This document shows positions 45,701-64,000 of a stretch of DNA of 64,000 bases, piece after piece. Made by a program: the position numbers and the translations under genes. Within the stretch, counting starts at the first letter, position 1. Each line of letters begins with the position of its first letter. The notes under the pieces were generated by a model. That model worked only from the letters and a program-made list of their open reading frames with translations. It did no database searches and was not told the origin of the DNA. The stretch lies in assembly GCA_000165345.1 (NCBI GenBank), contig CM000432.1:896001-960000 (forward strand), given 5' to 3'.

Positions 45701-46280
45701 AATCTGCAATTAGATATAATGGATGAATGTAATATGTAAGTTTTTCTTCTAACGGTACTTTTTGTACTGGCCTTTTGTAATAAATTGGAATAATTGCATT
45801 TTTTCGAATTCTAGCATTAAATGAAAAAAGCATAGATCCATCATGGTTAATAGCAGAATAGAGCTTGTTATCTGAGATATCCTCATGGTCGTTTTCAAAA
45901 TATACTAAACTCTCAAAGAAATCTTCAGTATCGTCAAGTTTTCCTGTTAACAACAGATTCTTTGTAACCTCAGGAAGTTCAACAAGTTCATTAATAAATT
46001 CAGGAAACATCATTTCCTCTCCACCAAGAATTTTATTATCCTTATATAGCTTATCTTCAGATAACTGTTCTAATCCTGCTCTTTTATAGTAGTAATTATC
46101 ATGAACATTGTTGCAATTAGCAATAGGTCCTCTAATTTCAGATCTTTCGACAAATTGAATACTTTTTAAAGCCTCCAAAAAACTCAGAATTAGGAAACAA
46201 ATTAGAATAGTAAAATTAATTCTCTTGGATTCATTATTTCTTAAGAAGACATTTTTTGTCTTATTTTGTGTGTTTTTCAT
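39717..46280 (-). CDS. giant ankyrin-repeat polytopic membrane protein B (2187 aa), tandem paralog of 33578..38788
   Basis: Same architecture: signal, ankyrin block (NHTSLFYAVENNDLEMAEILISNGACVNTWDPRTGLNPLMIALENHNGAMLSLIMDNGGDP), C-terminal multi-TM region. Shared block VAMICQVTDEEGRGAFWWSAYYGN...FYSRAIRN...CNPHRDDRYGIYPLNLII aligns with VICSSTDQNGLTILWWACKLHYPK...FYIQARKL...CNPHKTGNNQIMPIELLI in gene A. Confidence 0.75.
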   Translation of the reverse strand: MKNTQNKTKNVFLRNNESKRINFTILICFLILSFLEALKSIQFVERSEIRGPIANCNNVHDNYYYKRAGLEQLSEDKLYKDNKILGGEEMMFPEFINELVELPEVTKNLLLTGKLDDTEDFFESLVYFENDHEDISDNKLYSAINHDGSMLFSFNARIRKNAIIPIYYKRPVQKVPLEEKLTYYIHPLYLIADFLETDMSSRAILDIIEPLMLNITTYNTEYKKRNLIYCKKLNNIKSKVLDTEGGYHILYNLIRRKRSGSLHILKKLIEYGLDIHIFEKFPQLFTLAVSKSNHSIVKFILAEISNVNDTSKNDPNTPEDFDTYSYSSSGFNITNISSSDLNHSTLSFPKFSNSTTLPSSPSSSLSYFNSSRSTIYSNCSNKKKDLDLDFLNQLQNDGSSTYTQLPKSQSTQSDSHFPELLTHNLECDQKKLVNMVDNYNHTSLFYAVENNDLEMAEILISNGACVNTWDPRTGLNPLMIALENHNGAMLSLIMDNGGDPLRISPISGLDVMDLAIRENDGKMIERIVNHANYDINTSDNDIRSIILEYVTFQDKSDLKLIGKTFKKQFNRDHFFKQLKDYEKEARHVLDIVKIRISDSILNRLLKMESKKKVAMICQVTDEEGRGAFWWSAYYGNIKQIQIILDFYSRAIRNRWLGYQNCNPHRDDRYGIYPLNLIIKKAQRIPKKLIIDMLQFKDPKTNSPLILQILAKSKQPLRALKSIIHTLKEKFNISYSFINIWSNRSSMTDPIYYAVSRKLSTRIIYYLLEIAVKYSEETMGSTSIWRRRVMNSVHILKNVKNVDITSMLQLNENQFSHFEHQDGNLFGNDLNDDIVLSLKLKKKKLIRDLSNRTEKKILREPKEFFANSGTGTKNFFDNKWRTNINFLLQNEESQNRTPSNTIPPEDLPLTILPPRLRSIFSINYVKVDDSPESIAKIVIGRGPSHKSIENIRKLLEYAVGLDSDNSHSSFKYNSNNSLALNTELFSKNRNLMENSICNDPFNSKNRDYKAYRDSLKYTRNCRNNCKYCKRNSNSHIENHSFNNMMNFHDTIYQELNDKSSNSRLYKTSNFKTKSSPDIYDQYADESARYFSNPGVSRDLFNEPFEGRSYLHENPQFFRYSTSHPNQQQCNPSSSSSNLQPNSNPSGFNSGSSPSSLPTSSYAHPSIIPSHFLYPFGEASTDAIYSIVKLRPDTIGEILTRVSYKSPSDAIHVLALLDALPSDFPPFDEHAYSPLQRAATILYKYKGQRDTLPVLHALLSSRFVKLFSAEQLMESLNLLALIDYKPSSILELFGGLPSYCLYYGTQSGNVRHYYSKSGYWEMNFSSNKKDTIDEDNLGSSVGIDDKKNIFGFKEDFGNSESENYHFWNSNNNYDNMYNVENEKGQMEFIESFGTSKTNEGCPIKLSLIEKLREISNLPWENKLTKSDIVFVILCFVTALTLFSIYCNSNLSFYSICNPAKNKLIKYSSQINQETVLSDLGCNFTMDFGLVFMLNIPFPSKNNIKLGLLNSIKACFLINKVSEFPVRKYRSNHENLYESFQYSLISLIIKFSKAFNFIKLISILTFFIWIVISQIYEEIVCFVLLTCIAIIIYTFHGFRIDENMYDQLNSCFKCNNSLLLPEIMILYEQTNAQVIKTAKRAIYLHSNLRNATLSQTTDMKDISSKQIKKLLVSRNNLSPENTYTEIPEIGFLEISKLCYNNVEKTFKCYRLLFIVQVICLIFSFLITMKLPFNCYSSPEFSISRDWKYSSADLTFIFGNINSCRKLYQFQYPHLFQFTRFYPLTVSFLHFTAFIYYWQLLSMISSPIISVILALYHFHSLSSIFNSALSTPLSILLPNAKNSKILISQSYSSKEVSRANSIGTPLFSGEKKQSRDKKSTNKSFIIDDKNSILSSNGNNSPSAYLTKNSSNNSLKTQSNPNIRLQSVGEIAYGGPLEISNANIQTGNNKTTQVTDSFSLNPPQNTLNLLQPSNSTTPVNSINSKSPEIRLSNFLKLNHYSTEIQYQDFEHFEINYSKANLCNIESNSETSYYQVLEAQIYPFFIWADSRRTSHRICKYFWKPIDLFRDVLAIVTISFVLVYCYVEINSLPIKTIRLWNVVPISTLLLSASLLYIMHIMVEIHILTIEFWQWVPDVYDILPICSNLLNSVETTMRLLPFLTSPFYILNTPVKLPLLFGSILMFVLLINVNFS

Positions 46281-46784: not shown

Positions 46785-48458
46785 TTAACCGTCCCTAGAG
46801 TCACCAAAAGACTCCATATTTGGATTTTGCTCAATATTGTTCTGAACAGGATCTTTTTTCTTAGATACAGAGCTAAGAACATCGTCTATTCTGAGGAGCA
46901 TAAGAGTGGCTTCTACAGCAGTCTTATAGACTTGTTGCTTGACAGCAAGTGTATCCCAGATGCCGAGTTCCGTAACATTTGTAATAGCGCCAGTACATCC
47001 ATTAATTCCATGAACAGGTTTCTGCCCCCTGGTTGCAGATGAAGGTAGATAATGAGATTTTAATAAAGTCAAAGTCTTCATTACATTAGCTCCACAATTT
47101 TGAGCTAGAGTCTTTGGTATAATTTCCAGAGCTTGGGCGAAAGCTTTGTAGGCCCATACTTGGGTATCATCAATAGAAAATGACTTTTCATTCAAGTAAC
47201 AAGAAATGGCCATTTCTGTACCACCTCCGCCAGGAAGTAGAGCTGGATCAAGAAGGATATTTCTTGCAACAGCAAGAGCGTCATGGAGATTTCTCTCGAG
47301 CTCATTTAAGACGTCCTTGGATCCTCCTCGTAAAAGAATGGAGCATGCCTTTGGAGTTTTTGATTCGGTCAGGAAGCAAAAGTATTCATCTCCAATCTTC
47401 TTGACCTCGAATCTTCCGCAGCAAGTACCTACATCATTTGGTGTAAGCTCTTCTGTTCTGCTAGCAATAGTAGCTCCAGTGACTCTAGCGATTCTATTAT
47501 TATCGCTCTTCCTGACCCTTCTAATTACAGAAATTCCTGCCTTAACAAGGAAGTGTTGAGCAAGATCAGAAACACCTTTTTCTGTGAATACAACATTGCA
47601 ACCAGTTGCAATAATATCCTTACACATAGCTTCAACTTCTTCCTCCTCCTGTCTTAATAGAGCCTCCCAGTCTGCCTCCTTAGTGATTTCTACATTTGTC
47701 TGACTTTCGCCTTTCTTGTATTCAAGAGTACAGTCCAATAACAAAACCTTTGGATTAATGATCAATCTCTTCATTCGCGGGTGGACTACATCCTTGTTAA
47801 CAACTACACCATCTAAAACATAGCTATCCTCAATCTCACCTCCTGGAATCTTTTCAATTCTTACATATCTCTTAATATCAATTTCTTTTGGTGAACCTGA
47901 ATTAGCAATTGAGACAGTCTCAGCTGCTTTTAATGCCATAGAACTAATTAAACTACCCCATCTTCCAGAAAATTTAGTTTTTAAACAGGAGTCAACTACA
48001 CTAACCAAAGATTCTTTGTTATTTACATCCAATTTAACGCTCATTTCCTCCATGAACTTTATAGAGTCATCTAGTGCTCTTAAATAACCCTTTGCTATAA
48101 TTGTTGGATGTATGTTTTTCTGTAAGAGTGGCTCTGCACAAGCCAAGAACTCTCCTGCTAGAACTACAACACTTGTTGTTCCATCTCCTACTTCTTCATC
48201 TATAGTTCTTGAGAGTTCAATTATAGACTTTGCTCCTGGATGAGCAACATCAACCTCTCTCAAAATACTGTTTCCATCATTTGTAAGAACTATTCCACCC
48301 AAAGGATCTAAAAGCATTTTTAACATTGCTTTTGGGCCCAAAGTTGTTCTAACAACATCTGCAACAGTTTTTCCAGCTTGAATATTTCTTAACTGGGCTT
48401 TTCTTCCTTGATCTCTTTGAGAAGGTTGTTGTACAACCAAAACTTGATTTGGCATCAT
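46785..48458 (-). CDS. CCT3: T-complex protein 1 subunit gamma (CCT3)
   Basis: 557 aa. [43 protein letters not shown]...[17 protein letters not shown]...[16 protein letters not shown]...[14 protein letters not shown]...[16 protein letters not shown]...[19 protein letters not shown] matches CCT-gamma blocks. Confidence 0.92.
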
Positions 48459-49774: not shown

Positions 49775-51448
49775 ATGTTGAGAGCTCCAATAATTCTTTT
49801 GAAAGAAGGATCAGATACATCCCAAGGTAAAGGTCAAATCTTGAGTAATATCACAGCATGCCAAGCAATTGTTGATATTGTCAAGACGACTTTGGGTCCA
49901 TATGGCATGGATAAACTTATTCATAGCGGTAACTCTCCAGATGATGTAACAATTACCAATGATGGAGCAACAGTCTTGAATTTACTTGGAATTGTGCATC
50001 CTGCAGCAAAACTATTAGTAGAGATAGCAAAGGCACAAGATGATGAGGTTGGAGATGGTACTACAAGTGTAGTAATTTTAGCAGGCGAATTCTTAAAAGA
50101 AGCAAAGGGCTTTATTGAAGATGGAATGTCTCCACAAGTAATAATATCAGGTTTTAGAAAAGCAAGCCAAATAGCAATAGACAAGGTAAATAGTATGAAG
50201 ATCAGCCTTTCCGAGGAGACTCCAGAAAAGAGACGAAGTATGTTAATAAAATGTGCTGAGACAACTTTGAACTCAAAGTTATTAGCTCATTATAAGACTC
50301 ATTTTGCAGAAGTTGTAGTCGATGCTGTTTCATACTTGGATAATGAAATGGATAAAGACCTCATTGGGATTAAGAAGATTAATGGAGGGTCAGTTATGGA
50401 TAGTTTTCTAGTAAAGGGAGTAGCATTTAAGAAGACATTTTCATACGCAGGTTTTGAACAACAGCCAAAACATTTTGTGAATCCTAGAATCCTCTTATTA
50501 AATCTTGAATTGGAACTTAAGGCAGAGAAGGATAATGCTGAAGTTAGAATCTCTGACCCCACTGCCTACCAAAGTATTGTAGATGCAGAGTGGAAGATTA
50601 TCTTTGAGAAATTGGATCTCATTGCCAATTCAGGAGTAAATGTGGTTTTAAGCAGACTTGCAATTGGAGATTTGGCTACTCAGTACTTTGCTGATAGAAA
50701 TATCTTTTGTGCTGGAAGAGTTGAGGAGCAGGACCTTAAGAGAACCTCTTTGGCAACAGGAGCCATTGTGCAAACAACAGTTTATGGCTTAAACAAAGAT
50801 AGTGGAGTATTTGGTACTTGTTCTGAATTCGAAGAGGTTCAAATTGGAGCTGAGAGATATAATATCTTCAGAGACTGTGCAAAGACAAAGTCATCCACAA
50901 TGATCTTGCGTGGTGGTGCTCAGCAATTTATTGATGAAGCTGAGAGATCCTTGAATGATGCAATTATGATTGTAAGAAGAGCAATGAAATCATCATATAT
51001 TGTTCCTGGAGGAGGAGCTATTGAAATGGCTGTTTCTAAGACTATTAGAGATCACGCTAGAACAATTCTTGGTAAGGAGCAATTAGTCATGAATTCTTAT
51101 GCAAGAGCTCTAGAAGCAATTCCTAGATCCTTAGCAACAAACTCTGGGTTTGACTCCATTGATATCTTAAACAGACTTAGACAAAAGCACTCACAAAACA
51201 CCGAAGATTGTAGTAATTATGGTGTAGATTGCAGCAACGGAGGGATTTGCGATACTTTTAACTCATTCATTTGGGAGCCAGCTGTGAATAAGCTTAGTGC
51301 TTATTCAAGCGCAACAGAAGCTGCATGCTCTATTCTTTCTATTGATGAGACTGTTAAAAACAAGTCCAGTGAGGAGGATAGAATGCAGGGTCCTCTACCT
51401 GGAATGGGTGGTATCCCTCCAGGTATGATGGGCGGAGCAAGGAGATAA
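49775..51448 (+). CDS. CCT7: T-complex protein 1 subunit eta (CCT7)
   Basis: 557 aa. [44 protein letters not shown]...[54 protein letters not shown] closely matches CCT-eta. Gly/Met-rich C-terminal tail ([15 protein letters not shown]) is typical of CCT subunits. Confidence 0.92.
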
Positions 51449-52119
51449 ATAAAGTGTTGGTAGAGATTGGGTATTGGAAACCCCATCCTCTCATACGGTT
51501 TCTACAAATATTATTGTTACTGTCTTTTATCCTTCATTTATCTCTAACTGATACTAGTTACTATCAATCAAATCAAATTACATTTATTATTTTATTATTA
51601 ATATTACTAGAACCCCTTCCCATTATAATTAATTCTATTATTATTTTATAAATATCTTGTCCACATTATTAGCTTTTTATTCTTGCATGCAAATGCCGGT
51701 ATGTAGTAGGTAGTGAAATTGACAAGGCGGTAAAATTTTGTTGTTAAACATAATTAATACGTGTAAATTAATAATACCGGTATAAAGATAGTGCGCATGC
51801 ATACAGAAAAACAATAATTGGAGCCAAATTATATACTGACTGGCAGCCCCACGAAGATAACATGAAAAAAAAAACTAAAATTAATTTACCTGACATAAAT
51901 TATTAAAGCATAAAATCTTAAATTAATAAGTAATTAGAATAAAATCGAGTGAAATTAATTGTTTGTCATTATCTGTTAATAAAGTTTATTGACATTTTTT
52001 ATGTATTAATATTTCGAAAAAAACAATTCAAGTAAATAATTAAGTTAGCTATAAATAAATCATTATTCACGAATTAATGAATGTGGAATTAATTTCTTGA
52101 AAAAGGAAAGAAAAAGAAA

Positions 52120-55100
52120 ATGAATAGAAGAATTTTTAAAGAAACAAAGTTATTTTGGATTTTAATTCCAATTATAATATGTATAATATCACTTTCAACG
52201 AATATTTTTGATATTAATTCAATTGAAAAGAATAACAAAATATTTAAACTATGGAATGGAATATTAGAGAATGGAGATAAATTTTTAACAATAAGAAAGC
52301 TGGTAGGATTATCAAGAAATAAAGAATATAATCATAAGAAATATCCAATATTACGCCCAAAATATAATATTAGAGAAAAAAACAAGGTAAAAAATTGGAA
52401 TGACTTAGGGGTAGTATTGCAAAGTAAATGGCCACAAGTACCGTTAGAAGCTTCATTGATAGAATTTCTATCAGAGTTTTACCTAGGAATAGGAAGTACA
52501 TTTGAAGACTTAGTGAGAGATTTAATTAATATAAATAACCACGAAGATGGAAATAAAATTATTACAGCAAGGTTAGCAAGTGAATTGGTTGATAATAATC
52601 TAGGGATCAAATTAATGGAGACTATGGTAATTAATAAATACTATTCTCCTAGAATTGAGTCAATTCGAACATTAGAAAGAAATCAAAGAAGTGTTTTTGG
52701 AATAATATGCAAAAAGGCTAGTTGGTTTATTGTTATATATCAAGAAGAGACTGTTGATACATTTTGTAATTCCAATGATCTTTATAATAGTGTAATAAAA
52801 GGGAGATCTAAAGGATTTGAGAATGTAGAAAAATATGATTTAAGCTTCTCAAAATTTGATTTAGCAAAAGAACATATAATTGAAAATACTTATATCAATA
52901 TAGAAGAAAACAATAAAGTGAAAAAAATTGATATTTACGCATATGTCGATTTTTCAGAAGATAATTCTATAGAAATTTTGAATAACTTATTGAATATTTG
53001 GGATATATTAAAAGATCAAGGTCATGTAAGAATAAAAATTAGACATTGTGATAATGCTGATCTGAATGGTGAGATTGAATATTTATCTGGATTTGGAGTT
53101 TCAGTGAATAAACTATCAGAAAAATCGAATTCAGTAAATAATTCAAGTTCAGCTAAAAATGATATTTTTCAAAATGAGTTTAAATTCTCCCAACATAATC
53201 ATGATGAATTGGAATATTCTCACAAGGATGAAGAGTATAAAAACTTGACCGCAATGTGCGATAAAGCTGTGAATATGGAAAATGTATTAAATTCTGATGG
53301 GGATTTATCTATTGAATGTATGAAAGATATTGGAGCATTTCTAGTATCATTATCCAAAAGATTTGAGGACCAATTAGGTGCAATGGTACATTATTTAGAG
53401 AATTTTGGGACTTATCAAGTAGCATTGTGTAATGGATTAAGAGAAAACACTACTTTATCGGGCTATAATCAATTGCATGATCGTGTTTCAGAAGGATCCA
53501 CATTCTTTACTCTTAATGGAAGATTATTTTCCCCAACCGAAACAAATTTTTTTAATTTGGTTACTTTATTAAAGAGTTTAATTTTCTCAAAAATCAGATT
53601 AATGAAAAATAAGATCGATGATGAAGTTGTTATTATAGATTCTTTATCAATAACCGGAGTAAATGAGAAGGAAGAACTAAATCTATTTATGGAAAGTATT
53701 AATGGCCAATTGAATGATTCAAGAATTAATAACAAGTATAATAATGTAATAAAAGATAAGGGGTTAAAAAACCTAATAGAGAGAGGAGAAGTTCTTGATT
53801 TTGGCTCAATACTTGAATTTGAGAAGGATTTAGAAGAAGATCCAACTTTAATGGACGATACAGATTGGCTTGGGAAAAGAGAATATGTATTATCAAGCTC
53901 ATCTCCATGGCTGAAGAATTCTCCAAGAACTGATTGGAGAGTATCAAATATTCTTCCTTTGAAATCACGTCATTTTTACAAGGATATTACTAATATTGGT
54001 GATTCTCAATGGGGTGTGACTCCTAGTATTTTTGAAAAGGTATGGTTTCATAGAAACATTACTGAAAATAATGAAGATCAAGAGGATATTATTAATGATC
54101 TTGAAGAAAATAACTCCACTGAAGCGAAGATTTTACAAGAAATTGAATATTCACCATGGATAATGTACAGGATATATTTTTCAAATCAGGTTAAAAATTC
54201 GAGATTAATTCAAGATTATCCAATATATGATATTATGAAGGAACCAGAAAATACACTGGGTCAGTATTTATATCCATTAGAGAGTTTGCCAGAATTATTT
54301 GAAAAATATCCTGAAAATGTAGGGATTTATCCAGTCAAGGCTACAATTCTCGAAATAATAATAATGTGTGATCCATTTGATATAGAATGTATTACAGTGA
54401 CCATTGAAATGATTAATAAGAAGTGGCCAATAAAGTTAAACTTGTTATTAATAGACCCAGAATGGGTTAATTCCAGAAAGCCGGATTATTCTAGACCATT
54501 TTCATACAAAAATGTGACTTCAGAAGATGATTTTGAAGCTAAGTTTAGAGATATTTATGAAACTCAGAGAGAAATAGAAATTAATAAGGAAGGAAATCAA
54601 ACATACTGTAATAAAAATTATGGAGAGGAAAATGTTCAGAATTGCCCAAAGTGGATGAATAAGAAAAGAGGATTAAATTCTAGGAGGATATTGGATTACT
54701 ATGAGAAATTTGACAATAATTCAAAAGGAGAATATGCCTTGAAATTGGCAATTTCAGAAGTTTTTGGATTCTTGGTTTCTTCTTCTACAATTCAAGGAAT
54801 GTTTCTTGCAAGAGGTTTTATTGAAATGGTTGCAAAGAATTTACCATTAATATTAGAAGAAGAATTTACTTTAAGTCAGTTTCAAGAGTTTTTGAGTAAA
54901 TTCTTTGCTCATTTTAGTATCAATGCAGAATTAACCAAAGTTTGGGAGATTATTTATTCCAATAATCCAAATGATATATCTTACGTGAATAAGGTGGTAT
55001 CGTATTGTAGACTTAAAGGATTCACAACTCCTGGAGCTTTAGTTAATGGTTACTTTGTGGAAATTACTGATTTAATATTGGAAGAAGTAATCTATGGAAT

Positions 55101-58100
55101 AGCTAAAAAAGAACAGAGAATTATTTTGGAAGGTGTTAAACAAGGTCAAATCACCAGTAGTGATGATATTTATCATTATATATTTAATAATACATTAACT
55201 GGAATTAATTCAGTACCTATTGTTTTTCCACCATTCACAAAGTCGATGAAGTTTGAGAATTGGCCATTTATTGGAATACAAAATGAATGGAAACATATTG
55301 AAAAAGAAATCAATTATAAGCTTCATGAAAAATATGATATTGATAATTTGAAAGAAAATAGTAAGAAAAATGAAAATAATTCAATTTCTTACAAAGAAGA
55401 TAAAAGTGAATATCAAATCACCATTTTGGAAGAAAATGATAATGAGGAAAGGATTTTATTTGATTTTGAAGAATTATCAAGTTTGGAATATTCAACATTA
55501 TGGGATATTAATCCTGAATTAAAGCAAAATATGGAAAGTATTGAAAATAAGAGTCAATCAACTCCATGGATTACATTTATTGTATTAGTAAGATCATCGA
55601 GAACAGGATTATTAGGACTTTTAACTTTGATTGATTATTGGATTTCTACATTATCTTATCAAGCATCTATGCATCTGAATCAGTATAATGAATTATTATA
55701 TAATAGAAGATTCAGATTAATGTTTATTCCACCAAATGAAGTTCAACATAATTCAGATTTCTCACTGATTTTAGAAAAATGTATTGATGATATCTTATAT
55801 TTGAAAAAATATAACAAGGAAGGAAGAAAGATTTCATCTTTTGTTCCAATTTTGGAAAAGTTAAGGTTTATTAAATGGTTTGTCAAAGTAATCTTAGAGA
55901 ATATGGATGATTATATGGATTCTAGTCATTCTAAAATTAAAAGTGAGTTATTTGGAGAAAGAATTATTGAGATTTATGAGTCCCTTTCTTTTAGCTTTTT
56001 TGGAAAGTCTGGAAATGGGAGATTTAACGAAGAGAATTTAGAAGATATTTATTTAATTGAGTCTCAGAATAGAGTCAAAAACAAGTTGGTAAGTAAATTC
56101 TCATCTAGAAAAGAAAAAGAGGTAATATCTTTTCCATATTCTTCAGTGGGAAATGCTAAGTTAAAGGGTTTTCCAAAGTATACAAATTATAATTTAAATA
56201 AAGAAAAGTCTGATCCAAATTATGGAAGAGGAAGTTTCCAAGATACTGAATTATCAAATAAGGATTGTTTTGAAACTTTCACAATGGGAATTGTTATAAA
56301 TGGTGTCTATTTAAGAATTTGTCCAAATACATATCCTGTTTATTTGAGAAATGATATTAAAGTAAATTATTGGTCTTCTCCAATTCATTCTGTACATTTT
56401 AAACTATTGGAAACTGCAGTAACGAATAGAATGAGGCATTTGGTTTTATTTGGAGAGTTTAAGAGGACAGGAAAAAAGGAAGATCTTCTTTATAGAAGAA
56501 AATGGTCAAATATGGATCCAAACCAATTTTTTATGTTATTTAGTGAGCATTTACATGTTTCAAATTTATTCAAATCTGAATCTTTAATACAATTGGACGA
56601 CATTTTTGCTTCTTCAAGTTCACTTATTAAGCTTCATTTACCGACTGTTAATACAGGGAAAAGTTCAAATTTTAAAAATAATGCTTTGATTGGATTAGTG
56701 GCTGTAGTGAATCCCATTACACCTTATAGTACCAATATATTGAGATTATTTGATATTTTACATCAATTATTGGAAGCCGATGTAAAGCTGGTGTATAATC
56801 CTGTGATAAGTTATCAGAATATTAATGAGATTAATTTGATTGATACGTGGAGAAGGTATGTTTTTAATTATCCAAAGCTCAAATCATATAGGAAAGATAC
56901 TCCATATCAAGTAGTGACAAGCTTAAAGGAGCTAATGTATTCCAAAGGAGATCCAAGTGAATTTAAGATAGGTAAAGATGATTTATACTATTATAATTCT
57001 CAATTCATTGCAAAGTTCGATATACAAACAGAAAAGAGACTCAATATTAATATAGAAAAAAGTAATGATTGGAGTATAAGTTACTTAAAAACTATTTTTC
57101 GTCAATCAACAATTAGTAAAGAAAATGATTATTTTATTGTACCTGGTAATATTTCCAATGCAAAAGGAGAGTTATTGGTTTATGAACTTAAAGGTAAAGA
57201 GTTTGAAGCAACATTAATAGATAAATTGTCATCAGAAGTTGGGAATCTCAAGAATAATATAAAAGAAATTCAATTAATATTGCCATCAAGTAATTTCAAA
57301 TTTGAAATTGAATCTAAAAAAGTGTCACCAATACAAAAGATTTATTCAATAACTGATTTTAATAGTTTCTTTGGTTATCTTGGGATTGGAACTAATGATT
57401 TGGTACTAACTTTTGGTAGTGATATTAATAATAATACTACTAAGAAAGAAAATTTATCTATGAGTTTTCCAATTCAAGTATTTAATCAGAGATTATTTGA
57501 AACCAATCAATTTGTTGTACACCTTTCAAAATTATCAAAGATAAATAAAGAAAAAGTAAATTATGTAGAATTTAAAGAAAATTCAAGAAGATTATTTAGA
57601 GAGTTACATATTTTCTGTTTATCAACTCATATATTGAAAAAAGATGTTGAAGGAGATATAATAGATAAATTAATTGATCTAATTGATAAAGGATTTACAG
57701 GAAAAGCTGGAAATTACTATAATAAATTTATTATTTATTTTGATAGTAAAGATATTAGTCAAACAATAAGAGATTATTTCAACTACAAGTTATTTTGGAA
57801 ATATTATATAAATATAGAATATTTGGAAATTACAAGACCAAAATGGATACCTAGATTATCAAGTCAAAATAATAATTCAATGATGGATATTTTATTAACA
57901 TTAGAACATTGGATACCAACAAGAGTTAATAAATTGTTATTATTGGATCCATTTTTGTTGAATAGTAATACTTTTGATTTGGATGATTATTTTGGTCTAG
58001 TAAGTACAAATAAGACAATAAGTAATAATAAGATAAAAATAGGAGATTCAGCAATGACATTTATTAAAAAAAATGATAAAAGTGGATCAATAAGTACAAA

Positions 58101-58326
58101 AATGGGATTAATTTTGGTGAATAATTACAAGAAAATTGGGAGTTATTTAAAAAGAGCTTATTTTGAAATGTATTATGATTTTGAAGTTAGTAAGAAATTA
58201 AGACAAAATGAAGAAAATAATCAAAGTATGATGGATTTATTTATTTCTTATTTGAGAAGTAATAAAGAACTCAAGATTGAAGATGATACATATGAAAAAG
58301 ATCAAAACAAAATCCCAATTACTTAA
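52120..58326 (+). CDS. UDP-glucose:glycoprotein glucosyltransferase (UGGT)-like ER lumenal protein, 2068 aa, with apparently degenerate catalytic DxD
   Basis: Signal peptide MNRRIFKETKLFWILIPIIICIISLST. N-terminal LEASLIEFLSEF resembles UGGT LLEASEFLAEDS and MVINKYYSPRIESIR resembles UGGT LSLRSYSATIQAFQ. C-terminal GT24-like region has LHIFCLSTHILKKD (UGGT INIFSVASGHLYER), KFIIYFDSKD, YLEITRPKWIPRL (UGGT YKWPRWL), ILLTLEHWIPTRVNKLLLLDPFLL (UGGT ILFLDVLFPLVVDKFLFVDADQIV) and TFDLDDYFGLV (UGGT DFNLDGAPYGY). The catalytic DAD is replaced by D-P-F. Confidence 0.55.
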   Translation: MNRRIFKETKLFWILIPIIICIISLSTNIFDINSIEKNNKIFKLWNGILENGDKFLTIRKLVGLSRNKEYNHKKYPILRPKYNIREKNKVKNWNDLGVVLQSKWPQVPLEASLIEFLSEFYLGIGSTFEDLVRDLININNHEDGNKIITARLASELVDNNLGIKLMETMVINKYYSPRIESIRTLERNQRSVFGIICKKASWFIVIYQEETVDTFCNSNDLYNSVIKGRSKGFENVEKYDLSFSKFDLAKEHIIENTYINIEENNKVKKIDIYAYVDFSEDNSIEILNNLLNIWDILKDQGHVRIKIRHCDNADLNGEIEYLSGFGVSVNKLSEKSNSVNNSSSAKNDIFQNEFKFSQHNHDELEYSHKDEEYKNLTAMCDKAVNMENVLNSDGDLSIECMKDIGAFLVSLSKRFEDQLGAMVHYLENFGTYQVALCNGLRENTTLSGYNQLHDRVSEGSTFFTLNGRLFSPTETNFFNLVTLLKSLIFSKIRLMKNKIDDEVVIIDSLSITGVNEKEELNLFMESINGQLNDSRINNKYNNVIKDKGLKNLIERGEVLDFGSILEFEKDLEEDPTLMDDTDWLGKREYVLSSSSPWLKNSPRTDWRVSNILPLKSRHFYKDITNIGDSQWGVTPSIFEKVWFHRNITENNEDQEDIINDLEENNSTEAKILQEIEYSPWIMYRIYFSNQVKNSRLIQDYPIYDIMKEPENTLGQYLYPLESLPELFEKYPENVGIYPVKATILEIIIMCDPFDIECITVTIEMINKKWPIKLNLLLIDPEWVNSRKPDYSRPFSYKNVTSEDDFEAKFRDIYETQREIEINKEGNQTYCNKNYGEENVQNCPKWMNKKRGLNSRRILDYYEKFDNNSKGEYALKLAISEVFGFLVSSSTIQGMFLARGFIEMVAKNLPLILEEEFTLSQFQEFLSKFFAHFSINAELTKVWEIIYSNNPNDISYVNKVVSYCRLKGFTTPGALVNGYFVEITDLILEEVIYGIAKKEQRIILEGVKQGQITSSDDIYHYIFNNTLTGINSVPIVFPPFTKSMKFENWPFIGIQNEWKHIEKEINYKLHEKYDIDNLKENSKKNENNSISYKEDKSEYQITILEENDNEERILFDFEELSSLEYSTLWDINPELKQNMESIENKSQSTPWITFIVLVRSSRTGLLGLLTLIDYWISTLSYQASMHLNQYNELLYNRRFRLMFIPPNEVQHNSDFSLILEKCIDDILYLKKYNKEGRKISSFVPILEKLRFIKWFVKVILENMDDYMDSSHSKIKSELFGERIIEIYESLSFSFFGKSGNGRFNEENLEDIYLIESQNRVKNKLVSKFSSRKEKEVISFPYSSVGNAKLKGFPKYTNYNLNKEKSDPNYGRGSFQDTELSNKDCFETFTMGIVINGVYLRICPNTYPVYLRNDIKVNYWSSPIHSVHFKLLETAVTNRMRHLVLFGEFKRTGKKEDLLYRRKWSNMDPNQFFMLFSEHLHVSNLFKSESLIQLDDIFASSSSLIKLHLPTVNTGKSSNFKNNALIGLVAVVNPITPYSTNILRLFDILHQLLEADVKLVYNPVISYQNINEINLIDTWRRYVFNYPKLKSYRKDTPYQVVTSLKELMYSKGDPSEFKIGKDDLYYYNSQFIAKFDIQTEKRLNINIEKSNDWSISYLKTIFRQSTISKENDYFIVPGNISNAKGELLVYELKGKEFEATLIDKLSSEVGNLKNNIKEIQLILPSSNFKFEIESKKVSPIQKIYSITDFNSFFGYLGIGTNDLVLTFGSDINNNTTKKENLSMSFPIQVFNQRLFETNQFVVHLSKLSKINKEKVNYVEFKENSRRLFRELHIFCLSTHILKKDVEGDIIDKLIDLIDKGFTGKAGNYYNKFIIYFDSKDISQTIRDYFNYKLFWKYYINIEYLEITRPKWIPRLSSQNNNSMMDILLTLEHWIPTRVNKLLLLDPFLLNSNTFDLDDYFGLVSTNKTISNNKIKIGDSAMTFIKKNDKSGSISTKMGLILVNNYKKIGSYLKRAYFEMYYDFEVSKKLRQNEENNQSMMDLFISYLRSNKELKIEDDTYEKDQNKIPIT

Positions 58327-58374: not shown

Positions 58375-59583
58375 TTAGCTAAGCTTACCATGAATAAGAT
58401 TCTTGTTTTCAACGAAAACAGGACCTGCAGAAGTCATCATTGTAGATTCTTTAAATCTACAAAGTAAATCACTACTAACATTATAATTTGGTTGAACAGC
58501 AGCAAATGGATCTTTTCCTGTTTTTGTATTTAAAACAACATCAGGTTCTCCTTTAAAGTCATTATAGAAAATAAGTTCTCCAACTTTAGCATCTTTTGGA
58601 ACAGAAACAGGCTCACAATATTCTTTGGATGATTGATTTTGACTATTATTATTATTATTATCTCCAGAAGGAGCACTACTGGCACATAAAAGCATTCCAT
58701 TAGATGTAATACCTCTCATTGCTCTTGGTTTTAAGTTTGAAACAATGACAACAAGTTTATTAATTTTCTGAGTTAGATCATAAACTCCAACAAGTCCTGA
58801 TAAAATAGTACGTGGCTCATCTTCTCCAACATCAATTTTTTCAAGATAAAGTTTATCAGCAGTGGGATGTTTCTCAACAGAAAGAATTCTACCAACTCTA
58901 AGAGCAATTCTAGTTGGATCGTCAAGTGGTCTTTCTTCTTGTTTATTATTATTACTATTATTTCCATGTTCGCCAGTATTCTTTTTTTCTTTCTTTACAA
59001 GTTTCTTCTTAAAGAATGGTAAATCTAAATAATTAATACCTTCAGGACAAGATTGTCTTATTAGAGTAACAATTTGTATTTGTTCAAAGAATGTTGAAAG
59101 ATTTGGATATTCTGGAATATAGTCTTGATTTTGATCTTTGAGAGATTCAAAATAAGAGTACAATGATATATAAATAACAAGATCTACAATGGTTAAACTT
59201 CTTCCTAGAAAGAAACTTTTACCTTTAATCATTTCATTAAATTCAGACATTTCAGTTCCTTTAGAGAAGTTAAAGTTAATTTTGATAAGTTTCTCAATGA
59301 TTTCTTTGGATTCATTAATTAAACTAGAATCTTTTCCTAAAAGATTTTTACCAAAAGATCCAAGATAAATTAATATATCAACAATACTTTCTAATTGATC
59401 ATTGCAATTCTCTTTATCTTTAATTAAAACAACTTGGTTAATATTTTTTTCATTTGTTGAATTTTCATCAATTATTGACTCTTCAATTTTTAGCTCAGTA
59501 TTTTGTTTAAGTAAATAGTTTACAAGTAAAGATACAACTTTTCCTATATTACTAGTTTTTGAGTACTTTACTAGAATCACCAT
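58375..59583 (-). CDS. tRNA-binding aminoacyl-tRNA-synthetase cofactor, Arc1p/AIMP1/tRip-like (GST-like N-terminus plus EMAPII/Myf tRNA-binding domain)
   Basis: RILSVEKHPTADKLYLEKIDVGEDEPRTILSGLVGVYDLTQKINKLVVIVSNLKPRAMRGITSNGMLLCAS matches the OB-fold tRNA-binding domain of Arc1p/p43/Trbp111. N-terminal half has GST-C-like helices. N-rich insert present. Confidence 0.75.
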   Translation of the reverse strand: MVILVKYSKTSNIGKVVSLLVNYLLKQNTELKIEESIIDENSTNEKNINQVVLIKDKENCNDQLESIVDILIYLGSFGKNLLGKDSSLINESKEIIEKLIKINFNFSKGTEMSEFNEMIKGKSFFLGRSLTIVDLVIYISLYSYFESLKDQNQDYIPEYPNLSTFFEQIQIVTLIRQSCPEGINYLDLPFFKKKLVKKEKKNTGEHGNNSNNNKQEERPLDDPTRIALRVGRILSVEKHPTADKLYLEKIDVGEDEPRTILSGLVGVYDLTQKINKLVVIVSNLKPRAMRGITSNGMLLCASSAPSGDNNNNNSQNQSSKEYCEPVSVPKDAKVGELIFYNDFKGEPDVVLNTKTGKDPFAAVQPNYNVSSDLLCRFKESTMMTSAGPVFVENKNLIHGKLS

Positions 59584-59613: not shown

Positions 59614-60182
59614 ATGTAAAATTTAGTCTTTAAATTCGATTAGAATTTCTTTATTTAAGTAATTATTTTATAATTTATAAAAAAATTTGTGTTTTGGCGC
59701 CACATTTTTTTTAATCAAAAAAAAAGTACCGATAATTTTTTCTATACCGGTTACACGTAATTAAGTTATAAACCGGTATTTTTTTTTTTTTTTTTAATTT
59801 AAACAAAAATAAAAATTTGAAATTATGATATAATTGAACAATTATTAAATAAATCAATATATTCTGAAGATTAGCACTAATAAAATATTTTGAATTTAAC
59901 ATTTAAATAGTAAATGAAAGTACAAATTCAATAAACTTAGAACCCAAAGGAATATACAAAAACTCCGCCCCACACTATCATCTTTTGGATCTATTAACAA
60001 TATTAAACATAAATTGAATTAATTATTTTTGTGTGTATTGATAAAGAGATATTTTTTCTTTGTTATTATTATTATTTAATACATAAACAAAAAAAAAAAA
60101 AAGAAAAAGAAAGTGCATAAAAAAGAATTCAGAGTTGAAATTAAATATAATATAACAAACATTAACATTTTACTAATAAATT

Positions 60183-60893
60183 ATGTCTTCATTTATTCCA
60201 GGTATAAGAAAAGAACATTTGGAGGAAAGTTTGGAAGATTCAGTTGAAAATTCAATAGAAGATGACTTATTGAGTGAATATTTTCAAGAATTGTCATCTT
60301 TGATTGAAGAATTAAAACAAGGAAAAGAAATATTTCAACAAAATAAGGCAAAATATACAGAACAAGAAAAAGCAAAGTATCAAGCATTAATACTTTCATC
60401 TCAAAAATTACTGGAAATTATTTACTTTGAAATTCATTTTAGTGAATCAAATACAAGAAATTATCAAGATTTTCAGAATTATATCAAATATAAAGAGAAT
60501 CTTTCAAAATTATATCAAGATTTCTCCAAATTTGTAGTTTTTGTTGAATCTGATAATAAAAATGAAGAAATCTTAATTTCAAATTCATCATCAAAAGAAG
60601 ATACTAATTTTGATTCATCCTTAAACAATAATGATTTATTATTAGAAAAAAATAAAGAATATATCTTTGAAGAAAATATCAAAGAAAAAACTTCAAAAGA
60701 TTATTATTTACTTCAAAGTAAAAGATTATTAGAAGAAACAAATCAATATAGTCAACAAATACTTTTAAATCTAAATACACAAAAAGAACAATTAATAAGT
60801 ACCGATAATAAAATGGGTAATATATCAAAAAGTTTACAAGATTCATCATTATTAATAGACAAAATGACAAGATGGTGGCATCAACTTATCTAA
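60183..60893 (+). CDS. coiled-coil protein with C-terminal Q-SNARE-like heptad motif (Vti1/GOSR-like), no C-terminal TM anchor detected
   Basis: C-terminus LLEETNQYSQQILLNLNTQKEQLISTDNKMGNISKSLQDSSLLIDKMTRWW has SNARE heptad spacing with a central Q. Compare Vti1 LLDNTERLE...IGQEMLENLSHDREKIQ...LGKSSRILTGMLRRI. ORF stops at WHQLI* with no hydrophobic tail. Confidence 0.35.
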   Translation: MSSFIPGIRKEHLEESLEDSVENSIEDDLLSEYFQELSSLIEELKQGKEIFQQNKAKYTEQEKAKYQALILSSQKLLEIIYFEIHFSESNTRNYQDFQNYIKYKENLSKLYQDFSKFVVFVESDNKNEEILISNSSSKEDTNFDSSLNNNDLLLEKNKEYIFEENIKEKTSKDYYLLQSKRLLEETNQYSQQILLNLNTQKEQLISTDNKMGNISKSLQDSSLLIDKMTRWWHQLI

Positions 60894-60899
60894 TTATTA

Positions 60900-62456
60900 T
60901 TAAATGTTAAAATAAGGATGAAATGAAGAAGGAAATTCATCCATATCCTCAAATCTACTGATTACTATATATCTCTTTAATAAATGAGAAGAAGAAAACT
61001 CTTGAAATTTTGAATTATTGAAAATATTATTTATCATACTACTTTTTTGTATTTCTTTCTCTATATTAATTTCATCTTGATCCTGATCTGCATCTTCATC
61101 TTTAAATCCATTATTACTTGTATTAAAATTTGTATTCAATTCTAAATTCTTATATTTTATATAAATTTTTTGTATTATATATTCCGATACCTTTAGATCA
61201 CGAGACATATTTAATAAGGTATCGATTTCATTAATATTCATTAAAATTTCTTTTGATCTGTTTCTAACAAATTCAAGAATATGAGTATTTAAATTAAATT
61301 TCTCAAATTTATAATCTTTGAAAATTATACATAATAAAGATAAAGCAATTTTATAAACTGTAATGTTAAAATTCTTGCTTGGATCATGAATTATTATATT
61401 ATCTAAAATTAGTATTGAATTTATTGCATATTCTGTATCAGCAATATCATAAGTAAATAATGTAAGAAACCATTGTATTGCAAAAAGTTCTGAAGTTATT
61501 TCTATTTCATTTTCTTTATTATTAAAAATATTATCATATATTTCTGGTAGATATTCTTTAATTAGTTCATTAAATACAAAACACATTTCTCTAAGTTTAA
61601 TTAAACCTTTATTATATATTTCTTGATATTCCCAATTTATTAATATTGACATTACTGATGAATAAACTTGTTCAACATTAAAATCTAAAGCATATAAAAA
61701 GATTCCAACCAAATAATTCATTCCTTGACAGTAACCAACATTAGGTAATGCATAAGAAATCTTGAAAAGTATTTCAATCATTTTATTTTGATTTTCATTT
61801 ATTTGAAATTCTTTTAATTTAGGAAAAGTTCTTGATATATCTCTTAATATTTCATCGTGATTATTTAACATTGTATCTAATTCACTTTCATATGATAATA
61901 CAAAATCATTTTTACTTTCTTTTTTTAATCTTATTTCTTCAATCTTCTTATTATCTTCAATACAAAGTTCATATTTATCTTCACCAATAAGTATACATTT
62001 CCATATCCATTTTCTTTGATTTTTATTGAATTTATTTAATTGTATTGGATATCTTTCTTGTAGAGTTTTAATAGAGTTAGCTTCAGCAAGCCATAATTTA
62101 CATACTAAAGAGGCTTCTTTTATATCATCTTCATCTAAGAATGTAAACAAACCAGAATTTAATACTGATCTACAATTTTTACTAAATATTTTATTAATTA
62201 TTTAAAATAAAATTATTATTATTATTTTTTTTCATTTTATTACTTACCTATTATTATGATTCACTAATAACTTTCTTATAAATCCATCTTTTAATTGATT
62301 GTTCATATTGTTATATCCATTATTTTTACCTTTTTCAATATTTACTAGATTAGTTTTTTCATTTGGTTCATTTTCTTTGATTTTCAATTCTAATTCTGCC
62401 AAACATAACTTGTCAACATTTTTAAAATTCTTGTCTTTTTTTCTTTTTCTAATCAT
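60900..62456 (-). CDS. F-box plus TBC-domain Rab GTPase-activating protein, two exons: 62248..62456 and 60900..62181, intron 62182..62247
   Basis: TBC signatures: arginine finger ILRDISRTFP and glutamine finger GYCQGMNYL. The ORF-track M at 62150 is a TTG. The frame stays open upstream to an AG acceptor (aaatatttag|t). A GTAAGT donor ends the upstream ORF 62244..62459 (MIRKRKKDKNFKNV...LLVNHNN) in compatible phase, and the junction codon is AGT. The joined sequence LFTFLDEDDIKEASLVCKLW fits the F-box consensus (L..IF.YLD..DL...VCK.W). Confidence 0.6.
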
Positions 62457-62571
62457 CACAATAAAATAATTTTTAAATATTTTAATATCTTAATAATATA
62501 TTTACGCGAATGCATGCATGCATGCATATATGTATTACTAATAAAACAGAGATATAGATAATTAATTACAA

Positions 62572-62649
<78 letters not shown>

Positions 62650-64000
62650 TACTTTTTCCTTTCTTATAATAAAAAAGAAAAAAAAGACTTCTATTCACTT
62701 ATTTACTTCTAAGGAAAAGAAAACAATGTAATTATGCATGTAATGTATAATACTACACAAATCCATTAATCCAGTTTATTAAAGACTTCCAATATACAAT
62801 TAATTATTCCAAATTCAAATTTTTTCTCTATTCAATTTTTTTTTTCAAATTCTTTTTTTTTACCCTTTTATTATATATTTAAAAAAAAAAAAAAAAATCC
62901 CACTCTTTACAAAATTTTCTTTTCATGATCCAACCCACCCGCCAAATCTATTTTACCGTTTCTCGGTACCAAAAATGGCGGGAAGCATGTTTCACACGTA
63001 ATATAGAAATTAATGTAAAACAACAAGATTAAAAATATGAACAATTTAAATCAATAAATAGATAAACATATATAAATATAGAGGAATATTCGGTTAGTAA
63101 TAATAATAATCTATACGGTTTTCTTTAGTTACTCAGAAATCTAAAAAAAAAAGAAAATCAAAATCAGAAATGATAAAATCTCGTTTTTTAACTATCTGGT
63201 TTTCTTTTTTTTTTTTCTTTTCTCCTACTTATCCACGGTCTTCTTATTTATCATTTAAATATACATTTAACAACTAGTAAATGCTATTCTATTATTTATT
63301 TATTATTATCATTGAATAAATTAATAAGAAGTTGAACCTTATGCATATATACATAACTCTCCATATTTAAAAAAAAAAAAATAAACCAGTTAGAAATGGT
63401 TGTTTAATTTTTTTTTGTGATAAATTTTTGAAATATTCATGGTACAAAGAATCTTAATAACAGGTATCATCAACCAATTATCTTCTATTGTATATTATTC
63501 TGTATTTGTACTATGCCAATTATAAAATAAGTGAAGAGAAAAAAGAATTATTATTATTATTATTATTTTGAAATTAAATTTTGTATCATCAATGTAAAAA
63601 AAAAAAAAAGAAAAGAAAATGAATAAATTATTCATATGTCACCATCTTTTGTTCTTTATTATATAGATTGAAAATTTACCAATTAACTCTTGTTTTACTT
63701 TTCCTCTGTAAAGAAATAAAACAGCATAATCTTTGCATGTATAACACATATACATTTGATAATTATATCAACAGTTAAAAAAAGGAAAAAAAGATGGTAT
63801 ATATTATATTTCAATTGTTCAAGTCATCTCAATAAAATATAAGAAATTGTGTAATTTTTAGCTTAAATTAGTAGACTAATTAACAAATAATAAATAGCTA
63901 AAATTACATAATTGCATACTCTCCACAATAAAGCTCATAAATATTTGTGATTTTTCTTCATTCTTATATCTTCTTGTTTTTGTTACAGATTCAGTAATTA

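Follow-up and report, generated by a model that had tools for sequence, protein, structure and literature searches.

A divergent UGGT-like protein of Cryptosporidium, very probably a pseudo-glucosyltransferase

UGGT (CAZy GT24), represented by the Chaetomium thermophilum entries 5MZO/6FSN and by human UGGT1, is the closest described relative of the protein considered here, which is encoded by an uninterrupted open reading frame (ORF) at 52120..58326 (+) in a 64,000-nucleotide stretch of Cryptosporidium parvum DNA (GenBank assembly GCA_000165345.1, contig CM000432.1, positions 896,001 to 960,000; hereafter the window). In UGGT, both aspartates of an invariant D-x-D motif coordinate a catalytically important Ca2+ (PMC5610325, PMC7687155), and the human UGGT1 mutant D1316N is inactive with its substrate binding kept (PMC10325711). 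The reference residues used for comparison are D1294-A-D1296 of TdUGGT and D1316 of the human enzyme. In the rat UGGT mutagenesis of Tessier et al. 2000, activity reportedly also required the second Asp, as well as the Gln and Asn within DQDLPN.

Saccharomyces cerevisiae Kre5p is a UGGT-like secretory protein that has no UGGT activity and is retained in a different role (PMC7003075, PMC3184424). Likened from its description, it offers a conceptual precedent for a 'dead UGGT', one that arose as an independent event in fungi. Kre5p is tied to the synthesis of beta-1,6-glucan, which is not known from Cryptosporidium. The Caenorhabditis paralogue UGGT-b, which also lacks canonical UGGT activity (PMC7003075), is the reverse case: its catalytic residues are all conserved and its recognition domain is thought to be altered, whereas the Cryptosporidium protein keeps recognisable sensor signatures and has lost the catalytic site. 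The GT-A enzymes of the GT8 clan (the LARGE1 xylosyltransferase domain, XXYLT1, LgtC, Anaerococcus GT8 3TZT) lack the N-terminal architecture of UGGT. Their structures ranked under UGGT in both of our fold searches, and no segment of the Cryptosporidium protein matched Pfam PF01501 (Glyco_transf_8).

The Cryptosporidium protein shares with UGGT the secretory entry signal, the domain order (as judged by a colinear profile alignment) and the blocks KW..PL.EAS.EFL, YSPRIE, LSG(F/Y)GV, VAVV(N/D)P...NP and P(K/R)W(I/L), and the catalytic domain of UGGT is the GT-A fold closest to its C-terminal domain. It differs in being longer (2068 aa versus ~1450-1550 aa), in having no endoplasmic reticulum (ER)-retrieval tail, and in the catalytic domain itself, where D-P-F/V/Y stands at the D-x-D position, about 90% of the near-invariant residues have changed and the last third of GT24 has no counterpart. 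The GT24 domain of true UGGTs is their most conserved part, being 69-100% identical to a human-derived bait among the 120 best matches (animals, fungi, plants); in the Cryptosporidium protein, by contrast, the GT24-derived domain is the least recognisable part. Since the protein is homologous to UGGT but lacks the catalytic features that define the family and stays below every curated profile cut-off, we do not class it as a UGGT enzyme. In our judgement it is probably a divergent, catalytically dead descendant of UGGT in the secretory pathway, most likely with a non-enzymatic role.

Orthologues and UGGT ancestry

The 2068-aa product is identical to EAK87743.1 / CPATCC_001646, which is encoded on a ~1.1 Mb chromosome and carries the name "large protein with signal peptide" in C. 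parvum. This protein and its orthologues are known to the databases only under that name or as "hypothetical protein" or "signal peptide-containing protein". The orthologues, 2022-2078 aa in length, occur in at least eight intestinal-clade Cryptosporidium species. A word-indexed search of 5.8 billion proteins returned four orthologue clusters only (C. meleagridis/parvum/hominis/tyzzeri, chipmunk genotype I, C. ubiquitum and C. felis), none of them with a Pfam annotation. The C. parvum protein is 49% identical to the C. felis orthologue and 44% identical to that of C. ryanae.

The product begins with a hydrophobic segment at residues 11-29, the sole Kyte-Doolittle peak above 1.6 in the whole protein, kept in 5 of the 6 orthologues compared. 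Residues 1-29 (52120..52206, +) are predicted from this plot to form a signal peptide or a signal anchor. The gene model of the C. felis orthologue (P0004) begins MVKIRRFLGLSAS..., without the hydrophobic segment of the other five, and its start codon was probably mis-called.

Nei-Gojobori estimates of the ratio of nonsynonymous to synonymous substitution rates (dN/dS) were 0.16-0.17 overall for C. parvum versus C. meleagridis and C. parvum versus chipmunk genotype I. By region the ratio was 0.14-0.18, with 0.14-0.17 in the GT-A half up to D-P-F, and the tail past D-P-F gave 0.46 in one pair and 0.17 in the other. The gene is not decaying: the whole protein is under purifying selection and therefore has a function.

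To place the protein among known families, a Cryptosporidium-only profile of residues 85-1280 was run in an exhaustive HMMER search of 1.84e9 representatives. It matched three sequences: the C. felis protein, the C. ryanae protein (P0135) and P0136 (E=5.4e-5), a 657-aa metagenomic fragment that was the only match from outside Cryptosporidium. Its Pfam matches, Thioredoxin_13 at 65.7 bits (above the cut-off) and Thioredoxin_14 at 26.8 bits (below the 30-bit cut-off), mark P0136 as a UGGT-type protein. BLASTP of the C. parvum protein against it gave colinear high-scoring pairs in TRXL1 (167-194, E=4e-6) and TRXL2 (386-495, E=7e-6), the latter falling on the part of P0136 that gives the 65.7-bit match.

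P0136 is encoded at L001 433..2406 and L002 716..2689, on a GC-rich contig of a eukaryotic metagenome, and its TRXL1 motif, the nearest non-Cryptosporidium match among the representatives, reads NSYYSPRIEALRSVERRDRR. The ORF ends in YHYHYYQIYY beside AT-rich low-complexity DNA, and therefore probably runs into an intron. The ORFs downstream on the contig (a membrane protein and a leucine-rich-repeat protein) are unrelated, and the C-terminal half of P0136 was not recovered.

A word-indexed search with a mixed alignment returned neither the C. ryanae protein nor P0136; the only new protein was P0137, a full-length UGGT of 1450 aa in which each of the six Pfam domains specific to UGGT is present. 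When the six-species Cryptosporidium profile was compared with P0137 by HHalign, residues 136-2031 aligned colinearly with 29-1364 (P=4e-4, score 45.0). As controls, 40 shuffles of P0137 scored 21.1 +/- 3.2 (maximum 27.4) and the reversed sequence 25.3, which puts the full-length score ~7.5 standard deviations over the shuffles. A Cryptosporidium-only hidden Markov model (HMM) run with HMMER also aligned LVAVVNPIT...LVYNP (1525-1570) with residues 917-962 of P0137 (13.3 bits, E=4e-7 for this single comparison).

Pfam matches were limited to UGGT families, in the correct order (Thioredoxin_12, Thioredoxin_13, Glyco_transf_24), and all lay below threshold. In the whole-protein scan the sole match was Thioredoxin_13, the TRXL2 family of UGGT (residues 395-486, 19.3 bits); over the six orthologues this family scored 19.3-23.2 bits against a cut-off of 26, the 23.2 being obtained when the protein was scanned in segments. 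The isolated N-terminal segment matched Thioredoxin_12 (TRXL1) with E=0.061 and 13.6 bits (cut-off 26.1). Neither whole-protein nor segment scans matched Thioredoxin_14, Thioredoxin_15 or UDP-g_GGTase. Taken together, the similarity to UGGT is beyond chance, and the protein is UGGT-derived.

The C-terminal domain and its D-x-D site

For the C-terminal domain, 120 GT24 domains were collected with a bait that had first been validated on solved UGGT catalytic domains, and 99 of them were used in an alignment. HHalign of the C-terminal 289 aa (C. parvum-clade alignment) against these 99 domains reproduced exactly the register proposed in the sequence-only reading, with a score of 19.0. The isolated C-terminal domain of C. 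ryanae had a single Pfam match among 24,736 families, namely Glyco_transf_24 (E=0.0067; 16.3 bits, cut-off 25.7), covering profile positions 32-106 and ending at the D-x-D. A local GT24 HMM gave 12.4 bits on the same sequence (E=3e-6, single comparison), and the other orthologues fell in the C. ryanae register wherever they were aligned. By sequence, the GT24 origin of this domain is marginal.

The domain was also modelled with AlphaFold2 (AF2). A model of the 968-aa C-terminal half from five sequences was unusable (mean predicted local distance difference test, pLDDT, of 33). Residues 1800-2068 were then modelled from the six Cryptosporidium sequences only, with no templates; real GT24 sequences were kept out of the alignment because seeding with them would be circular. 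This model reached a predicted template modelling score (pTM) of 0.64, with 121 residues at pLDDT 70-90. When it was searched with Foldseek against 350,542 PDB chains, the top match was the Chaetomium UGGT catalytic domain 7zkc_A (E=4.9e-7), and the top 25 were nearly all UGGT entries, followed by LARGE1 and a GT8 protein. Two fold-search programs both ranked UGGT catalytic domains first. The predicted elements are beta1 ELHIFC, beta2 KFIIYF, beta3 INIEY, the helix SMMDILLTLEHW and beta4 KLLLL, with D-P-F directly after. On the predicted structure, then, the C-terminal domain is GT24-derived and has the GT-A fold of GT24/GT8. Since the C. parvum sequence by itself is not significant, the case for GT24 is built on the C. 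ryanae orthologue, on colinearity and on structure.

In the GT24 HMM register, the places of the first Asp, the Ala and the second Asp of D-A-D are taken by D1943, P1944 and F1945 (57946..57954, +; codons gat-cca-ttt). This triplet, at the position of the Ca2+-binding D-x-D, follows strand beta4 (KLLLL, 1938-1942) directly. D-P-F/V/Y falls on D-A-D in every orthologue whose GT24 HMM alignment reaches the motif. Asp and Pro do not vary among the six species; the third place is held by F, by V in C. felis and by Y in C. ryanae, never by an acidic residue. The replacement of DAD by D-P-F, as put forward in the sequence-only reading, is supported: no genuine D-x-D lies elsewhere in register, and the motif reads D-P-F/V/Y in the six species.

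The only other D-x-D in the last 300 residues, D1953-L-D1955 (57976..57984, +), is present in three of the six species (C. parvum, C. meleagridis and chipmunk genotype I), with DLN in C. ubiquitum, EFE in C. felis and DAY in C. ryanae. On these grounds it was ruled out as a substitute catalytic motif. LRQNEENN was likewise rejected as a remnant of LDQDLPNN, not being conserved among the orthologues.

The loss extends well past the D-x-D. Eighty positions are near-invariant, defined as at least 97% identical in the 99 GT24 domains (animals, fungi, plants, protists). The Cryptosporidium proteins keep 2-9 of the 80; where the alignment reaches the motif, 7-9 are kept and 71-73 lost. Nothing aligns past D1943 with YHISALYVVDL, NLDQDLPN, WLWCETWC or IDLCNNP, and no DQD-like motif was found there. 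Past the D-x-D position the domain is ~40-60 residues short, too short to hold the missing GT24 motifs. Given D-P-(F/V/Y), the replacement of ~90% of the near-invariant residues and the truncation of the glucose/acceptor half, glucose transfer is very probably impossible: the UGGT-like protein would be unable to transfer glucose from UDP-Glc to N-glycans, and is very probably a pseudo-glucosyltransferase.

All strings on which the sequence-only reading relied were found in the protein: the N-terminal blocks LEASLIEFLSEF (109-120) and MVINKYYSPRIESIR (169-183), and in the C-terminal part IFCLSTHIL (1831-1839), KFIIYF (1869-1874), YLEITRPKWIPRL (1901-1913), LLLDPFLL (1940-1947) and FDLDDY (1952-1957), as was the 2068-aa frame with its signal-type segment. 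Its block-by-block match to GT24 survives in part. IFCLSTHIL, KFIIYF, INIEYLEI and KLLLL-D correspond to beta1 to beta4, in a register now given by C. ryanae and by structure; FDLDDY is not conserved among orthologues, and C. parvum taken alone does no better than shuffles. UGGT and GT24 profiles do respond, all below their cut-offs (TRXL2 23.2 bits, TRXL1 13.6 bits and, in C. ryanae, GT24 16.3 bits). The observation itself is thereby confirmed. Its interpretation, a kept scaffold with lost chemistry, is supported, the loss being far wider than the D-x-D. The description as an 'ER protein' is an assumption: an N-terminal signal or anchor is present, but a conserved K/HDEL-type C-terminus is lacking.

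Domain map and neighbouring genes

Domain bounds were obtained by carrying the Pfam domain limits of P0137 over to the Cryptosporidium protein along the colinear HHalign alignment. The TRXL1-like domain (~aa 100-330; 52417..53109, +) includes KWPQVPLEASLIEFLSEF, YYSPRIESIR and YLSGFGVSV, and is supported by the Thioredoxin_12 match, the BLASTP and HMMER matches to P0136 and high-confidence HHalign runs. The TRXL2-like domain (~aa 385-580; 53272..53859, +) is marked by Thioredoxin_13 in six orthologues and by the BLASTP match to P0136. A TRXL3-like region (~aa 604-1043; 53929..55248, +), ~190 aa longer than its UGGT counterpart, is placed by colinear projection, with 83 columns of confidence >=5 and no Pfam match of its own. 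The TRXL4-like region (~aa 1091-1497; 55390..56610, +) contains large insertions and, with 32 columns of confidence >=5, is the part with the weakest support. The protein has ~570 extra residues relative to UGGT, mainly in the TRXL3 and TRXL4 regions.

The beta-sandwich-1-like region (~aa 1498-1695; 56611..57204, +) gives the HMM match to P0137 and the longest high-confidence HHalign run, and it holds the block LVAVVNPIT...LVYNP (aa 1521-1562; 56680-56805, +). The putative beta-sandwich-2-like region (~aa 1696-1824; 57205..57591, +) follows from colinear projection with zero high-confidence columns; its FFGYLGIG faces LGYFQLKA of UGGT. The degenerate GT24-derived GT-A domain occupies aa 1825-2068 (57592..58323, +).

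The gene order around the UGGT-like gene (two CCT genes, the UGGT-like gene, a GST_C/tRNA_bind gene, V-SNARE and RabGAP) is conserved. Directly upstream lies a head-to-head pair of CCT/TCP-1 chaperonin subunit genes, 46785..48458 (-) and 49775..51448 (+). Both encode proteins of exactly 557 aa that are only 29% identical, and are therefore different subunits and not a recent duplicate. C. meleagridis (L003) and chipmunk genotype I (L004) have the CCT pair and the UGGT-like gene in the same arrangement. On the other side, the gene at 58375..59583 (-) is convergent with the UGGT-like gene at their 3' ends, with only ~50 bp separating the stop codons. It encodes a 402-aa protein of the type of Arc1p/AIMP1-like aminoacyl-tRNA synthetase cofactors, with GST_C_3 (weak) and tRNA_bind Pfam domains in its orthologues. 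Further upstream, a 2187-aa ORF at 39717..46280 (-) has ankyrin repeats in its L003 and L004 orthologues. GC skew reaches its window maximum over 52001..58000 (+0.23 to +0.27), spanning the whole UGGT-like ORF, which indicates a coding strand strongly biased towards G over C. At the end of the window (60001..64000) the G+C content falls to ~0.20-0.21, versus 0.25-0.35 elsewhere.

Alternative explanations and the glycan context

From these results, a mechanism may be proposed for a catalytically dead UGGT descendant. The protein would enter the secretory pathway through its N-terminal signal peptide or anchor. By the colinear alignment it keeps the order of UGGT, in which TRXL1, TRXL2, TRXL3 and TRXL4 are followed by two beta-sandwiches and, at the C-terminus, the GT-A domain, whose nucleotide-binding half retains a predicted GT24/GT8-like GT-A fold. 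Its sensor scaffold may bind non-native glycoproteins as a holdase/chaperone or as a quality-control adaptor, and the GT-A remnant could be a structural plug on the beta-sandwich or a glycan/nucleotide-binding module.

Several points weigh against this proposal. No Pfam UGGT family (PF18400-PF18403, PF06427, PF18404) reached its curated cut-off, and C. parvum had no GT24 match in Pfam even at E<=10. No UGGT chain in the PDB was found by phmmer with the protein or by HMMER with the five-species profile and the six-species C-terminal profile, so that the fungal UGGTs were missed. The C-terminal HHalign score of 19.0 was equalled by 39 of 200 column shuffles and was dropped as stand-alone evidence. 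TRXL3, TRXL4 and beta-sandwich 2 were assigned by colinear projection only. We infer the loss of activity from sequence, and a chaperone or holdase role, although the most plausible, is a proposal. Residence in the ER is an assumption, not an established fact, since a signal or anchor is present without a conserved retrieval signal: the six orthologues end in KIPIT, KTSIT, IEDDL, DDEKR, GDEEQ and ASQDK, with no K/HDEL-type C-terminus conserved among them.

The failed whole-protein Pfam and PDB searches, together with a C-terminal HHalign score equal to that of shuffles, are what might be expected if an unrelated AT-rich, low-complexity Cryptosporidium protein mimicked UGGT motifs by chance. 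Such a resemblance is already largely refuted, and we regard it as very improbable. The full-length colinear alignment stands far above its shuffles; the sole non-Cryptosporidium match in the exhaustive search is of UGGT type; the weak Pfam matches consist of, or are headed by, three distinct families specific to UGGT, in the right order; and an unbiased fold search placed UGGT first in two programs. A still-active glycosyltransferase with a non-canonical, possibly metal-independent site, perhaps using another donor or acceptor, is a further candidate. Some GT-A enzymes function without a canonical D-x-D, D1943, with which the motif opens, is the same Asp in all six species, and the low dN/dS of the GT-A nucleotide-binding half shows it to be kept under constraint. 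We consider this improbable, however, given the loss of nearly all of the most conserved GT24 positions, the lack of any counterpart to the NLDQDLPN/WLWCETWC region in a domain that is cut short past the D-x-D, and the hydrophobic, variable third motif position; a D-x-D mutation is enough to kill the activity of human UGGT1 (PMC10325711).

The protein might instead have been repurposed as a secreted or organellar protein with a structural or binding role outside ER quality control, for example in secretory organelles, at the parasitophorous vacuole interface or in the oocyst wall. The species-specific C-termini just described would fit such a role, as would the ~570 residues of lineage-specific insertions, the fast divergence from the C. 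felis and C. ryanae proteins, and the precedent of Kre5p, which acquired a cell-wall-related role (PMC7003075). The absence of a KDEL signal is nevertheless weak evidence, because ER retention may be achieved through a UGGT partner, just as Sep15 is retained through UGGT (PMC7687155), and it is the TRXL1 and TRXL2 sensor domains that are best conserved relative to UGGT. We therefore hold repurposing to be rather unlikely, and prefer a UGGT-derived protein that has lost its chemistry and retained its sensor.

A passage in PMC3184424, citing Banerjee 2007, lists Cryptosporidium among the taxa without functional N-glycan-dependent quality control. In our full-text literature search, no description of a Cryptosporidium UGGT homologue came up. 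UGGT, calnexin and calreticulin also go unmentioned in a genome-wide reconstruction of the parasite's glycosylation pathways from 2022 (PMC9713705). According to that reconstruction, intestinal Cryptosporidium build a Glc-capped Man5 precursor, and the glycoproteins of oocysts carry Glc1Man5GlcNAc2 as their most abundant glycan. The orthologue of glucosidase II has no signal peptide and is regarded as doubtful; other processing enzymes of the ER or Golgi were not found, and malectin is present (PMC9713705). If the terminal glucose is mostly kept on C. parvum N-glycans, there would be no need for a cycle of de- and re-glucosylation, which could let the catalytic site decay and the sensor stay: where glucose is rarely removed, reglucosylation would be redundant, and selection would be relaxed for the chemistry but would still act on the scaffold.

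Intestinal species have ALG6, ALG8, ALG5 and ALG11, all four of which the gastric C. muris and C. andersoni lack (PMC9713705). We found no orthologue of the UGGT-like protein beyond the eight intestinal-clade species in the 1.84e9 representatives, among which the C. muris and C. andersoni proteomes were not confirmed to be included. The apparent restriction of the protein to producers of the glucosylated long arm is a suggestive correlation. We tentatively raise the possibility, doubtful as it is, of a glucosylation-independent, UGGT-derived folding sensor that tracks the long-arm species and whose GT-A domain serves as a lectin-like reader of (Glc)Man5.

If this were true, N-glycan-dependent quality control in Cryptosporidium would have been rewired and not simply lost, the sensor being a new kind of ER quality-control factor. 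Whether or not that possibility holds, a constrained UGGT descendant with a degenerate catalytic site turns what has been taken for gene loss into a loss of chemistry with the sensor retained, and the protein would be the second independent natural UGGT pseudoenzyme after yeast Kre5p, in a lineage thought to lack UGGT. It would also be a natural experiment on the role of the TRXL/beta-sandwich scaffold without glucosylation, and may provide a handle on the folding surveillance of heavily secreted glycoproteins, some of them vaccine candidates, in a minimal-glycan parasite.

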